Below are positions 7,682-29,198 of a stretch of DNA of 53,603 nt, piece by piece. The DNA comes from Octopus sinensis. Its lineage: Eukaryota. The stretch's first letter is position 1. Each line of letters starts with the position of its first letter. The notes under the pieces were generated by a model, which was given only the letters and a program-made list of their open reading frames with translations, had not been told where the DNA came from and did no database searches. The stretch lies in the NCBI RefSeq assembly GCF_006345805.1, contig NW_021835770.1, positions 1-53,603 of the forward strand, in the 5' to 3' direction. Position numbers and translations under genes: made by a program.

Positions 7682-8118
7682 TTATTCTTTTATTTGTTTC
7701 AGTCATTTTGACTGTGGTCATACTGGAGCATTCACTTTAATTGAGGAAATCGGCGTTAGGACTTATTCTTTGTAAGCCTTGTACCTATTCTATCGGATCT
7801 CATTTGCCGAACAGCTAAGTTACGGGGATGTAAACACACCAGCATCGATTGTTAAGCGAGGGGGGGGGGGGCAAGCACAGACACACAAATATACATACAC
7901 ACACACTACGACAGGGTTCTTTCAGTCTACCAAATCCACTTACAAGGCTTGGTCGGCCCGAGGCTGTAGTAGAAAACACTTGGCCAAGGTGTCACGCAGT
8001 GGGACTGAGCCCAGAGCCATGTGGTTGGTAAGCAGGCTACTTAACACACAGCCATACCTGCGCCTCAGAGCCATGTGGTTGGTAAGCAGGCTACTTAACA
8101 CACAGCCATACCTGCGCC
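7682..8118 (-). mobile_element. SINE family B with a tandem duplication (about 54 bp) of its head
   Basis: cagagccatgtggttggtaagcaggctacttaacacacagccatacctgcgcct occurs twice in tandem. Confidence 0.85.
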
Positions 8119-24484: not shown

Positions 24485-24650
24485 TTACTTGTTTCAATCA
24501 TTTGACGGCGGCCATGCTGGAGCACCACCATTAGTCGAACAATTCAATCGCAGGACTTATTCCATCGGTCCTAGTTTTTATTCTATCGAACTCTTTTGCC
24601 GAATCGGCCTGCGTACACACCAACATCGGTTGTCAAGCAATGTTGGGTGG

Positions 24651-24694
<44 letters not shown>

Positions 24695-24832
24695 TATTAT
24701 ATATATATATATACGGCGGGCTTCTTTCAGTTTCCTCTTTGGTCGGCCCGAGGATATAGTAGAAAACACTCGCCCAAGTTTCCACGCAGTGGGACTGAAC
24801 CCGGAACCATGTGGTTGGTAAGCAAGCTTCTT
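24485..24832 (-). mobile_element. SINE family B interrupted by a 3.6-kb insertion; head resumes at 28422-28458
   Basis: aagcaagcttctt duplicated at 24820-24832 and 28422-28434. Confidence 0.85.
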
Positions 24833-25372
24833 TATTTCATTACATTTGCCATGAAGGCAGTACATAAAGTAAAGTAGCTTTGCGGGCTGGACGAGGACAT
24901 TAATGAAATGAATGATAATGAAAGAAAGATTATAAGGATGGGAGAAGACAAAAAGCGCCCGCCGACTTCTGCTCCTCTGAAATATTGTTCTTCAAAACCA
25001 AACACAAAACGAGGTATTAAACCTCTTACAACTTTTACAACTTTTCAATTTTTGGACTTAACAGTCCATTACAAACAACAACATAGTTCAATAATTACTA
25101 TAAATATAATACAATACACAAAGCCCCTCCTCCCAGACCTGGCTTACACTTCCCTTAGGAATGCGCCAGCTCTAGATCGGGGCCCCTCAAGTCGTATCTA
25201 AACATGCCCTATCAAACGTAAAAAATACAATATCACTTCTCCCTTCCTCCTCTTTCCGGACCTCCAGTCAAATATCTAGCCGCCTGCAGAGCAGACCACG
25301 TTGACAGCCGGGGAGTTCAGAAAGAAAGCGAAGTGCCTATTATCCAATGTTTGTGTCACACAGTGCCACAAT

Positions 25373-26608
25373 TTATGACTCATCCACAAAATAACTTGTG
25401 CCCGCATCCTCTGCCATCCTCCACGCCTCTTCCAAAACCGCATCGAGTTCCGTGTTAGCGTTGCCCGGGAACAAGCGATATTCTTCATTGAGCTCCTCCA
25501 GCTCAAACGTCACATCGAACGTCGTGGCCTCCACAGTTATCTGCGGAGGCCATTCGGGGTCCTGTGTGAAGGCTGAAGGTGCTCCCTTATGGTGCTTTTC
25601 CATCATCTTTTCAATTTCTCCGCCTCTATGGAAGAAGATCAATACATCGTCTTTCCCCGGGGGCGGGATATTCAATTCTTTCATTGGCGGCACAGTTCCC
25701 GCCAACGGTATTTCTTCTCCTGTCGGTGGCACAACCCCAACCGACGTAGTTCCGGGACATTCCGGTACTATGTCACCGACTGCCGGTAATGTCCCGTTTC
25801 TCTACCTCTTTTTCTTTTTTTTCTTTTCAACTGAGGGAGGGTGCGTCTCCTCCGTGGCCGGAAGATTCGCCTTTCCCTCCTCATCCCTAGTATCCTTTGG
25901 TGAGCACCCAGTACGCAACTGCTACTTAATTTATCGACACCGAAAGGATGAAAGGCAAAGTGTACACTAACATATCATTCTCCTGCAGCTCCACCCCTTC
26001 CGCAATAGAGATAATGATAAAGGCGGCGAGCTGGCAGAAACGTTAGCACGCCGGGCGAAATGCTTAGCGGTAATTCGTCTGCGTTACGTTGTGAGTTCAA
26101 ATTCCGCCGAGGTCGACTTTGCCTTTCATCCTTTCGGGGTCGATAAATTAAATACCAGTTTACGAACTGGGAGTCGATGTAATCGACTTAATACCTATGT
26201 ATGTCCTTGTTTGTTCCCTCTGTGTTTAGACCCTTGTGGGTAATAAAGAAATAGGTACTATGTCACCGACTGCCGGCAATGTCCCGTTTCTCTTCCTCTT
26301 TTTTTTCTTTTCAACTGAGGGAGGGTGCGTCTCCTCCGTGGCCGGAAGATTCGCCTTTCCCTCCTCATCCCTAGGATCCTTTGGTGAGCACCCATTGTTG
26401 CTCACCTTCTTCCTCTTTCGGCCCCTGTTTGAGGAGTCCTCCGCTTCCTCGGCCGTCTTCATCCCCTCTTCTACAGGGTTTCACTTAACTGCTCCGGGAT
26501 CTTATTTTGTTCCCGGGGACAGTTTTTCTTTATATGGCCGGACTCCAGGTACCGATGACACATGGGGGGACGACCCTCAAGTATCACCGGATACCTGCAC
26601 CCGGCCAT
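25373..26608 (-). pseudogene. LINE ORF1/gag-like protein with degenerate CCHC knuckle, interrupted
   Basis: MAGCRYPVILEGRPPMCHRYLESGHIKKNCP, 1-nt frameshift into MKTAEE...GDIVP, continuing in ORF 25373-25732 once the insertion is removed. Confidence 0.65.
26022..26253 (+). mobile_element. SINE family A, full length
   Basis: ggcggcgagctggcagaaacg...taataaagaaata. Confidence 0.9.
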
Positions 26609-26882
26609 TTTCAAAAAATCTGGAAAAACCAGTAGGGAGAAAGTGGAAAAACAAAAAGGAGGAAGTCAAATAAAGTTTAGAAGAAAGTCAATAGTTCAGG
26701 AACACAGAAAAAAAAAATCTTCCGGCCTAGGTTGAACCCGGAACGCCACAACTGGAACACGACTTCCACAAAAATTGATATACAAATTGTTCAATCTTCA
26801 GAGGCAAAGCACTCCCCCAAACAGCAGTTCTCACAATTATTAAAGTTCTTCGAAAGGCACAATACAAGCAATAATTCTCATA

Positions 26883-28122
26883 CGAGGGGCGTTCAATAAG
26901 TAATGCCCCTGACCCACGAAACTTGGCACAGTTATTAGTCTTTTTCTACATAGGAACCACCCAGAGTTACGCATTTCTCCCATTGTTTGATGCAGCTCTG
27001 GAGACCGTTTTGTGTAGAAGGCCCCAGCTTGGTCCTCCAACCTGACGTGACTTCAGAATCAAGGCTGCATCATCTGGGAACGCTTTCCTTTCAAAAACAA
27101 CTTTGATACTGGGAAGAGGTGAAAATCAGAGGGTGCAAGGTCAGGAAAGTAGAGGGATGGGAGGAGTTCATAGCCATACGCCTGTGCTTCTGATCTGGCG
27201 ACAAGCGAGTTGTGGACCGGAGCGTTGTCTGCGGAGGAGGATGCCTTTGCTGACTTGCCCCGCCTCTTGATTTTGATAACTTCTCTTAATTTCCTCAAAA
27301 GTGAAGCATAATAAGCTCCTGCAATTGTGGTACCCTTTGCCAGGAATCTGTCATCACTACTCCGTCCTGGTCCCAGAAGACTGTGGCATGACCTTGCCAG
27401 CGGAGGGTGCACCCTTGCCTTCTTTGGAGGGGGTGAGTCACGGTGCTTCCACTGCATTGACTGGGCTTTGGTCTCTGGTCATCGTGATGGACCCAGGTTT
27501 TATCCTGTGTTTCAGTCTTTTGAAAATTTTGACTCATCTTCTTGGCACATCTCCAAATTCACCCTCGAGCACTCGACGCTTCTTACTTCTGGAAAGGCGT
27601 GAGCAACCTGGGAATCCATCTGGCAGACACCTTTTGCTATGCAAATGGTCATGAATGATAGTTTCCACAGACCCGGTACTAATCTTGACCTCATGGGCTA
27701 TTTGGCGAATAATTATGCGTCGATCTTCCAAAATGGCAACCTCAATTTGACGGACAGATGCCTCATCAATGGCAGAAGGGGCGACCAGATCTGGGAGCTG
27801 TTCCACAGAGTTCCGACCATGTTTGAATTCACGATGCCAGCGTTTTACAAGGTCATATGATGGGGCATCATCACCATAAGTTACTTCATTTCATCAAAAG
27901 TCTCCCGTGGTGTGCGTCCTTTCAAATACACAAAAACCGATCACTGCTCGACACTCAACAGGCTCCATTTCACACTTGACTCGGTTCAAACACCTGTAAA
28001 TCAGAAACCACAATTAATTCAGAACTTACTCTATAGAGATATAAATGATTGCACATGCAAAATTTCAGCTAGATCAAACAACTGCAAGTGGGTCAGAGGC
28101 ATTACTTATTGAACGTCCCTCG
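26883..28122 (-). mobile_element. Full-length mariner DNA transposon
   Basis: TIRs cgaggggcgttcaataagtaatgcccctgaccca / tgggtcagaggcattacttattgaacgtccctcg, TA duplication on both sides. Confidence 0.95.
26935..27968 (-). pseudogene. Frameshifted mariner transposase
   Basis: MEPVECRAVI..., QDKTWVHHDD, QWKHRDSPPPKK, DNAPVH, YFPDLAPSDFHLF, WEKCVTLGGSYVEKD*. Confidence 0.92.
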
Positions 28123-29198
28123 TAATTAAGTGAGAAAAATATTCACTCAACATAAACCAAAGACGAAACACACCCAAAACAAAAATTCTCACGATTCAGC
28201 GAGAAAAATTATGTGCCCCATGTCGGCAGAGCCAGAATTCTGAATCCAGTAGGAATTCCTGCCTGTACAAAAACAATTCTCAACAAAAATTCCCGCTGGA
28301 CCCAAAAAACAGAATCTTACCTTACAATGGAGCTTCAAAATTTTTCAATTCGAGACGGCTTCAAAAGCATGTCTCATCTCTTTGGTGCCGAACACCACAA
28401 TTATTCGCACATGCGCAGTGGAAGCAAGCTTCTTACCACACAGCCACTTCTGCGCCTACACAGCCACTATACACTATATATGTGTTGTGTGTGTGTGTGT
28501 GTGTGTGTATCACAGTTCACTGACAGAAGTGAATAAAAGTTAAACGATAGAACGTAGCTAGGGACCTGCTATATTTTTGAGGTTTCTCTTTTTTCCTTGT
28601 GTTTTATTAAATTCTAAGAGTTTAATGCCAGAAATTCTATTCCAGAATATCATTGAGTAACGAATGTAACGCAATAATGACGCAAGTCTCATTACTCTCA
28701 ATGACATTAGCTAAAACATGCGCTTCACGACGCTTCCGGGGAAAGTCGTTAGACATACCAGCTTTATACATGCGCTGACGTAACCGTAACTACAGTAGGT
28801 GGTATCTTCCGGAATGTCAAGTCTTGAAATAATTTTTTTGAAGCAAATTTAATGTTGCTTCCATTAATTGTGTTACGTGTTAAAAATGTTACAGATGTAA
28901 ATATGTTCAATATGCTAATTATTTTAATGTATTGAATGTTATCTAAATATGCCGTGTGCTTAAGGAATTTGATTCGCTGTCATGTAGCTTCTTGTTCGGT
29001 CTCTCTGCGCGGCAACTTCGGCAAGTATCTTCTGCTATAACCACGGGCCGATATTGCCATGTGAGTGCATAGGCAAAATGAAATTGTGTTTAAGTACATC
29101 GAATAGCTAGGTATGTATGTATGTATGTATGTATGTATGTATGTATGTATGTATGTATGTATGTATGTATGTATGTATGTATGCATGCATTAATGTGT

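Follow-up and report, generated by a model that had tools for sequence, protein, structure and literature searches.

The insert that splits a SINE B copy in the 53,603-nucleotide stretch of Octopus sinensis DNA analysed here (contig NW_021835770.1, hereafter the window) belongs, as a decayed member, to a large family of ORF1-only retroelements. We consider it highly probable that this broken copy represents a family fixed at one base of the SINE B head, and that a full-length LINE of the L1/Tx1 group found at that base supplied the endonuclease and reverse transcriptase that copied it there. The family is an ORF1-only, non-autonomous LINE and a SINE-targeted variant of the HAL1/HeT-A-like kind; its fixed target, the SINE B head, was overlooked in the first-pass annotation of the window, which had described a HAL1-like element inside a SINE.

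All features of the window given below lie on the minus strand unless stated otherwise. As first annotated, a SINE B is interrupted in its head between a 13-bp exact direct repeat (28422-28434 for the 5' copy, 24820-24832 for the 3' copy). The true length of the duplication is probably 15 bp, reaching 28420 and including one mismatch in this copy, because the next two bases also follow the host in other copies. The host SINE B comprises a 5' part of the head (28435-28456) with a box-A-like motif, a sequence that precedes full-length copies elsewhere too, and a 3' part (24486-24819) with a box-B-like motif, body and tail; these tRNA-like boxes were read by eye, and no tRNA was called in the head by Rfam or ARAGORN.

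The first part of the element's 5' UTR (28125-28421) is 94.7% identical to positions 2-303 of the intact element at locus L035, and is followed by a nested mariner (26883-28122), already recognized earlier, with a TA duplication at 26881-26882 and 28123-28124, 37-nt inverted ends (TA duplication included) and Pfam matches to a broken transposase. The second part of the 5' UTR (26649-26882) ends at a 563-bp deletion at about 26649/26632 which, relative to L035, removed the end of the 5' UTR, the ATG and about 163 codons; the deleted interval is present in 23 of 29 other loci, and its two sides are adjacent in none of the 29. The ORF1 remnant (26254-26632) corresponds to about amino acids 164-293 of the intact protein, with a frameshift near 26478, and includes a decayed CCHC zinc knuckle (26519-26560; Pfam zf-CCHC below cut-off). 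The knuckle, basic patch and acidic end of the ORF are present as annotated, interrupted by one frameshift and one stop, whereas the motif 'CHRY' is a decayed CHRC in which the second Cys has become Tyr; intact copies read C-x2-C-x4-H-x4-C.

A nested SINE A with a LINE-type tail and an inverted SINE A fragment on its 5' side (25911-26253, plus strand) is flanked, as claimed, on both sides by an element duplication of 147/141 bp (25764-25910, which carries the stop, and 26254-26394); the duplicates differ by three substitutions and one 6-bp indel. The C-terminal part of ORF1 through the stop codon lies at 25373-25763, and the 3' UTR (24833-25372), the full-length relatives of which show no ORF2 remnant, contains a predicted stem of 4 bp with a 5-nt loop (24847-24859) in common with the 3' end of the autonomous partner described below. 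The window element has 21 private changes in 930 nt, three of which are of the A-to-G type, so that A-to-G hyper-editing was not seen. The proposed nesting order fits, with the host SINE class (about 11% diverged) older than the element and the element older than the SINE A duplicates.

Across the genome, at least 50 DNA matches to the element (40 of 2139 candidates scored) and at least 150 ORF1 protein matches at 65-100% identity (150 of 11749 scored) were found. Full-length copies, of which 47 distinct ones were identified, measure 1881-2629 bp. The family size of 1.85 kb given in the first-pass annotation is too small, since the window copy is internally deleted; full-length copies have 1.9-2.6 kb. 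The copies are dispersed, form multiple subfamilies whose identity falls as low as about 64% and in which unrelated 5' UTRs occur at the same base, and carry the hallmarks of retrotransposition (duplications, 5' truncations, many copies); they have no poly(A) tail and end in a fixed motif directly on the duplication. An ORF2-sized frame was absent from within the element in the 30 best and in 20 of the most divergent protein matches, and ORF2 was detected in 0 of 11 full-length copies (by tblastn) and in 0 of 30 copies picked by their tails; the suggestion that the family is without a reverse transcriptase agrees with these counts. Of 30 bins, 29 are covered by contigs assembled from a presumed RNA run, a kind of contig that cannot show transcription.

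The copies adjoin a single base of the SINE B head. This was so for 72 of 77 tails picked through the element body (the other five being without the target) and for 30 of 30 copies picked through their tails (the first 30 of 145); genome-wide, 591 exact filled junctions compare with 56588 exact empty sites. The element copies appear to be independent insertions at the SINE B site. The rival reading, in which a few founding insertions were followed by joint amplification of the split SINE and the element within it as a composite unit, would account for the co-variation of element subfamily and host subtype, and the young set in AAGT-type hosts has similar identities in element (92.1%) and host (90.9%), so that the identity test does not discriminate there. 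In the window's subfamily, however, element tails have a median identity of 96.3% and host halves only 79.8% (193 pairs, 22 copies), with a correlation of 0.03. Copies truncated at differing 5' ends lie directly below intact SINE heads (L017, L029, L087, L159, L176, L179 and L183), and mixed tandem stacks also speak against a composite unit, as does the use of this base by elements with unrelated 5' UTRs and by a separate LINE; we consider the composite unit very improbable. Host-private variants flank the element on both sides at L087, L107 and L212. The idea that SINE B itself travels by this targeting was rejected, as nesting at the site was seen for only 2 of the 175 ends and 1 of the 115 heads examined.

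Intact copies encode one protein of about 420 amino acids (ORFs of 422 and 421 amino acids), predicted to bind RNA. Its predicted architecture is two RRMs and a CCHC knuckle: the structural model (pLDDT 88) matches RRMs at residues 14-103 (Z 9.4, rmsd 2.8, 82 aligned) and at residues 103-182 (Z 8.6, rmsd 2.6, 73 aligned), and Pfam gave a weak zf-CCHC match only. ORF1 is under purifying selection. The dN/dS analysis, as had been proposed for the ORF, gave 0.20 on internal branches (bootstrap 0.16-0.25; 64 of 65 loci, with the rows L057 and L062 kept despite long branches that probably reflect frameshift misalignment), and a third-position excess was found between subfamilies; terminal branches gave 0.46, not 1, and ascertainment or mutation bias therefore lowers all ratios.

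A candidate driver was found only through the junction search: of the first 30 filled junctions, nine carry ORF2. This partner LINE is 5.4-5.7 kb in full length and of APE-RT-zf organization, with Pfam matches to Exo_endo_phos, RVT_1 and zf-RVT, and to zf-CCHC over cut-off; at L254 its ORFs of 467 and 1130 amino acids are intact, and an ORF1-only copy comes immediately after it, separated from it by the target repeat, in a mixed tandem stack. It shows the features of the L1/Tx1 group (ORF1 plus an ORF2 with APE, RT and a C-terminal zinc motif), and its RT has human L1 ORF2p as best solved relative (E 3e-65, versus 6e-20 for R2). The partner also has an RRM/CCHC-type ORF1 and a target preference, which are Tx1-clade features according to passages of PMC5203782 and PMC4494074; no named Tx1 sequence was among the best 120 of 141 matches. 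Partner-type tails lie at the target in 62 of 64 cases, a set picked partly with the target in the query, and zf-RVT loci were not found to end at the SINE B site among 16 readable tails of the first 20 loci or among 20 larger loci.

The partner is likely the driver of the ORF1-only element; trans-mobilisation by its ORF2 is inferred because site, duplication, tail and tandem stacks are shared. The mobilisation by an L1/Tx1-like LINE put forward earlier thus has a candidate at the same site with the same duplication. The element and the partner have a 3' end of about 36 nt with a covarying hairpin in common, and the last 26-38 nt of the element are 78-85% identical to four partner copies. The stem is 90.9% paired, with eight cells changed on both sides and 0 of 500 shuffles as good, figures to be read with the hairpin having been derived from the same sequences, 36 of 93 tails having been hand-picked and relatives inflating the shuffle test. 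The earlier statement that the 3' end resembles those of SINE A and of LINEs holds for the LINE-type end, which the partner shares; the last 23 nt of SINE A match another LINE group (L134, L135), not the partner. This second group was examined as a driver and is not it, given that the pattern joining its tail to SINE B had no matches and that 0 of 38 tails abut the site.

The element might instead be proposed to derive from an autonomous LINE through an internal deletion, either unique or recent, or from a processed host mRNA, on the grounds that the copy in the window has a deletion of its own and is broken, that internally deleted partner copies exist, and that look-alikes in the ESM Atlas include ZCCHC3-type host proteins (0.91). 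Either origin is extremely improbable for a family with numerous ORF1-only copies scattered through the genome, a division into several subfamilies, purifying selection between these, and a LINE-type 3' end without poly(A). The homologues of the protein are LINE ORF1s, at 24-35% identity over long matches to those of ORF2-bearing LINEs in the same genome; with the partner's ORF1 the identity is only about 28%, and the ORF1-only element is therefore no recent deletion of the partner. In the ORF1 tree the ORF1-only group is set apart by a long branch with support 100/100; of 12 partner rows, 4 with short matches were left out of the first tree. That the two ORF1 groups are sisters was neither rejected nor shown (p-AU 0.64). 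Longer or fused ORF1 relatives were not found among 446 candidates, which is weak evidence.

Under the preferred reading, i.e. a passenger driven by the partner LINE, the element would be transcribed from its own 5' UTR, and its ORF1 protein, with the predicted two RRMs and zinc knuckle, would package its own RNA; the partner's ORF2 would bind the shared 3' hairpin, nick the SINE head and prime reverse transcription there. The duplication of 13-15 bp would restore the landing site, and later copies could stack head to tail. SINE B would be a dispersed and likely harmless landing pad.

The SINE hosts are of two subtypes, AAGA and AAGT, distinguished by a single base that lies four nucleotides away from the junction. 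The window's subfamily was found in AAGA-type hosts in 28 of 28 cases and the tail-picked copies in AAGT-type hosts in 30 of 30; the partner-type tails examined lie in 56 AAGT hosts and 1 AAGA host, and one partner-tail pattern gave only 2 AAGA junctions genome-wide. Because of this mismatch, the exact driver of the window's subfamily may be an unsampled relative. The coupling could, tentatively, reflect a passenger that inherits its landing address: in the same system, transcription of the passenger would continue past the element into the duplicated target, so that the RNA carries an inherited tag; beyond the borrowed endonuclease, this tag would pair with the nicked strand and pick the SINE subtype. 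AAGA hosts are 11-12% diverged beyond the duplication, versus 5.7% for AAGT hosts, and are thus truly an older class, so that such a tag would not merely be overwriting the site. Timing alone fails to explain the coupling, since window-type copies (nearest-neighbour identity 0.966-0.994, 22 copies) are younger than the older partner family (0.805-0.966, 19 copies), which sits mostly in AAGT hosts, a comparison made across different regions, the rates of which may differ. A requirement of R1Bm for downstream target sequence in accurate priming, described in passages of PMC7265360, is in line with this possibility. A separate driver with an AAGA-preferring endonuclease would, however, explain the same counts, and three partner-type copies lie in AAGA hosts; we regard the inherited tag as possible, though doubtful. 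If true, a three-tier system (SINE host, SINE-targeting LINE and ORF1-only hyperparasite) with heritable, RNA-encoded target choice would result.

A description of the octopus family, or of the combination of an ORF1-only passenger with SINE-head targeting, was not found in the literature searched, a scope outside which Repbase, Dfam, subscription papers, bioRxiv supplements and the O. vulgaris repeat library lie and may contain the family. The system combines ORF1-only passengers with the Tx1-type targeting of other repeats, strategies known until now from separate cases, and has a SINE head as safe harbour. It makes testable what maintains selection on ORF1 in non-autonomous LINEs and whether the passenger's RNA plays a part in choosing the target; the intact partner and passenger ORFs in the genome and the two host subtypes provide natural controls.

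Mammalian HAL1 has a poly(A) tail; the octopus element is without one, has a strict target site and stands outside the mammalian HAL1 lineages. As outlined in passages of PMC5753468 and PMC5786205, mammalian HAL1 (half-L1) is a non-autonomous member of the L1 group that encodes ORF1p only and needs ORF2 in trans, traits that the octopus element shares, with the need for ORF2 in trans being probable; the octopus ORF1 is of the RRM plus CCHC type, whereas the mammalian one is of the Transposase_22 type (coiled coil, one RRM, CTD; PMC5203782, in the part concerned). Ag-Sponge is likewise an ORF1-only, non-autonomous LINE, but of the CR1 clade, and no target specificity is given for it in the relevant passage of PMC5786205. 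R1Bm and SART1Bm are sequence-specific APE-type LINEs in which priming may involve pairing between the target and sequence at the 3' end of the RNA (passages of PMC7265360), and offer a model for the subtype coupling; they differ in belonging to the R1 clade, in having rDNA or telomeric targets and in being autonomous, and such pairing in octopus is hypothetical. Comparable in targeting are Tx1L in Tx1D of Xenopus and the crocodilian Tx1-Mar with SINEU, where, according to portions of PMC4494074, a Tx1-type LINE also targets a transposon, with a passenger on the same target (SINEU target preference 13-90%) and tandem stacking with the duplication between copies; there the targets are DNA transposons and the passenger is the non-coding SINEU, in contrast to the SINE head and the protein-coding ORF1-only element of octopus. 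HeT-A and the other ORF1-only telomeric elements of Drosophila likewise persist, found new families, occur in head-to-tail arrays and use the same target niche as partners that carry ORF2 (passages of PMC13534243 and PMC5786205). They are of the Jockey clade and occupy chromosome ends, whereas the octopus element is of the L1/Tx1 group, has as its site an internal position in a dispersed SINE, defined by a nick, and shows no evident host benefit; the octopus system is an internal-genome parallel to the HeT-A/TART arrangement.

The insert on the minus strand, from 28421 to 24833, splits the head of a SINE B between two copies of a 13-bp direct repeat, in line with the first-pass annotation. Nested in it are a mariner (26883-28122) and, between the two copies of a 147/141-bp duplication, a SINE A insert (25911-26253). 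All the ORF features recognised there (knuckle, basic patch, acidic C-terminus) are retained in the remnant, which is broken by one frameshift and one stop. Relative to L035, the intact ORF1-only reference copy, 563 bp are absent, including the ATG and ~163 codons; this interval is filled in 23 of 29 other loci and closed in none of the 29. The 141/147-bp duplication around the SINE A (25764-26394) is unusually long, and an inverted SINE A fragment lies at the 5' side of the nested SINE A. SINE A tails often precede SINE A head sequence (L002, L032, L109, L132, L220), a separate self-nesting pattern. At 8049-8103 (minus strand) and at L225, the SINE B head is tandemly repeated over its initial 30-55 nt.

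Matches to the 3' 928 nt of the element number at least 50 (40 scored out of 2139 candidates), and those to the ORF1 core at least 150 (65-100%; 150 scored out of 11749 candidates), both counts being lower bounds. Full-length copies measure 1881-2629 bp (n=47 distinct), and intact ORFs of 422 aa (L035) and 421 aa (L036) each carry a complete CCHC knuckle. The insert had been read as ORF1 only, with no RT; ORF2 in other copies, which would speak against that reading, was looked for and was absent from the 30 best and 20 divergent ORF1 protein matches, from 30 tail-picked copies and from 11 full-length copies. Many unrelated 5' ends occur among the ORF1-only subfamilies, and the element is covered by contigs of four public runs with three organism labels. 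In one window-type subfamily (L056-L062), the 3' UTR has an extra segment of 130-170 bp, which ends in a second tail-plus-target-like motif.

For residues 1-210 of ORF1, AlphaFold with a 34-row alignment gave a pLDDT of 88; one half of the predicted model aligned with the RRM fold at Z 9.4 (rmsd 2.8, 82 aligned) and the other at Z 8.6 (rmsd 2.6, 73 aligned). Foldseek matches were tandem-RRM proteins, with low whole-model TM-scores. Type I ORF1, i.e. RRM plus CCHC, is found with Tx1-type elements (PMC5203782). The dN/dS check proposed in the first-pass annotation gave 0.20 on internal branches (bootstrap 0.16-0.25; 64/65 loci) and values down to 0.15 for deep pairs, and between-subfamily differences are concentrated at third positions; a core stop codon is present in 28/64 copies. 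The sample is biased, as the terminal-branch dN/dS of 0.46 (64/65 loci) shows. These codon comparisons show selection on ORF1.

The location inside a SINE B had been seen correctly, but the fixed target had been overlooked: the same SINE B site is adjoined by 72/77 distinct tails picked by element body, and by all 30 copies picked by tail only (first 30 of 145). Genome-wide, 591 exact filled junctions compare with 56588 exact empty sites. SINE B itself does not nest at this site (2/175 ends). The insertions look independent, since 5'-truncated copies sit directly under SINE heads, host-private variants are present on both sides of the element, and element tails in the window subfamily have a median identity of 96.3% versus 79.8% for the host halves; in the young AAGT-type set (92.1% versus 90.9%) this identity test does not discriminate.

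The first 30 filled junctions comprise nine with ORF2, 15 with this ORF1, five short pieces with this tail type and one unassigned. An L1/Tx1-like LINE had been proposed as mobiliser, and a candidate partner with a shared tail was indeed found at this site: an ORF2-bearing element of 5.4-5.7 kb, with young copies 98-99% alike and APE, RT and zf-RVT Pfam domains; its best relative of solved structure is human L1 ORF2p. At L254, an ORF1-only copy comes directly after intact partner ORFs of 467 and 1130 aa; the target repeat separates the two and recurs after them. The 3' UTRs of element and partner are alike in the last 26-38 nt only; this tail contains a 4-bp stem with compensatory changes (structure derived from the same sequences; 36/93 tails hand-picked), and some ORF1-only and partner subfamilies have their first 14-40 nt in common. 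ORF1 identity to the partner is 28%, and the ORF1-only group forms one side of a long branch in the ORF1 tree (support 100/100); an AU test permits, among other placements, a sister relation to the partner (p-AU 0.64). A second ORF1-only element (1456 bp) occupies this SINE B site at L053, in tandem with a window-type copy and upstream of it; the ORF1 of this second element is 37% identical to the partner's and 30% identical to that of the window family.

In the partner lineage, some copies (L219-L223, L227, L228, L245, L248; 1.8-4.5 kb) lack the middle but retain ORF1 and the 3' end of ORF2; they may represent a further non-autonomous class. An extra T in the 5' duplication copy, absent from the 3' copy, is common to several young partner copies (L184, L191, L202, L203, L210, L211, L214, L217), which suggests target-like sequence at the RNA 5' end. 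Another L1/Tx1-group LINE (L151) adjoins, ~260 nt beyond its ORF2 stop and past its 3' end, a U1-like sequence, which we take to be the 5' end of U1 snRNA. The same ~150-nt sequence follows three copies of another LINE family (L137, L148, L149), which suggests a further fixed target.

Tail type is coupled to host subtype, the two SINE B subtypes differing by one base near the junction: the window tail type occupies AAGA-type hosts in 28/28 cases and a younger type AAGT-type hosts in 30/30, while partner-type tails examined divide 56 to 1 in favour of AAGT, with two AAGA junctions for one partner-tail pattern genome-wide. Timing alone is insufficient as the cause: AAGA-type hosts belong to the older SINE B class, and AAGT hosts had already been entered by an older partner family. 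There may once have been an AAGA-preferring driver, so far unsampled; alternatively, the passenger RNA may carry read-through sequence from the target that pairs with the primer, for which R1Bm is a model (PMC7265360).

The SINE-targeted ORF1-only system is real: the anatomy of the element, its fixed target, the tail in common with the partner, the stacking in tandem and the selection on ORF1 are all demonstrated. Because APE-type LINEs insert by target-primed reverse transcription, we infer mobilisation in trans by the partner: its ORF2 would bind the 3' hairpin of the passenger RNA, nick the SINE head and copy the RNA at the nick, and the 13-15-bp duplication left behind would restore the landing site. 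Packaging of its own RNA is the likely role of the retained ORF1 protein; for proteins of this kind, Kojima (PMC5786205) suggested multimerisation with the protein of the partner instead.

In the literature searched (Repbase and Dfam lying outside its scope), no description was found of an ORF1-only family that targets a SINE; L1-Tx1 families are merely counted in the first third of PMC13282606 and one supplement, and the portions covered of PMC9115989, PMC4758252, PMC3747384, PMC8869645 and PMC9004415 hold nothing on such a family. Tx1 elements that target other transposons, with a target common to the passenger, are known (PMC4494074), as are the ORF1-only LINEs HAL1, HeT-A and Ag-Sponge (PMC5786205, PMC5753468), and new families can arise from ORF1-only lineages (PMC13534243). 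The octopus element works like HAL1 and HeT-A but lacks the features tested for membership in mammalian HAL1.
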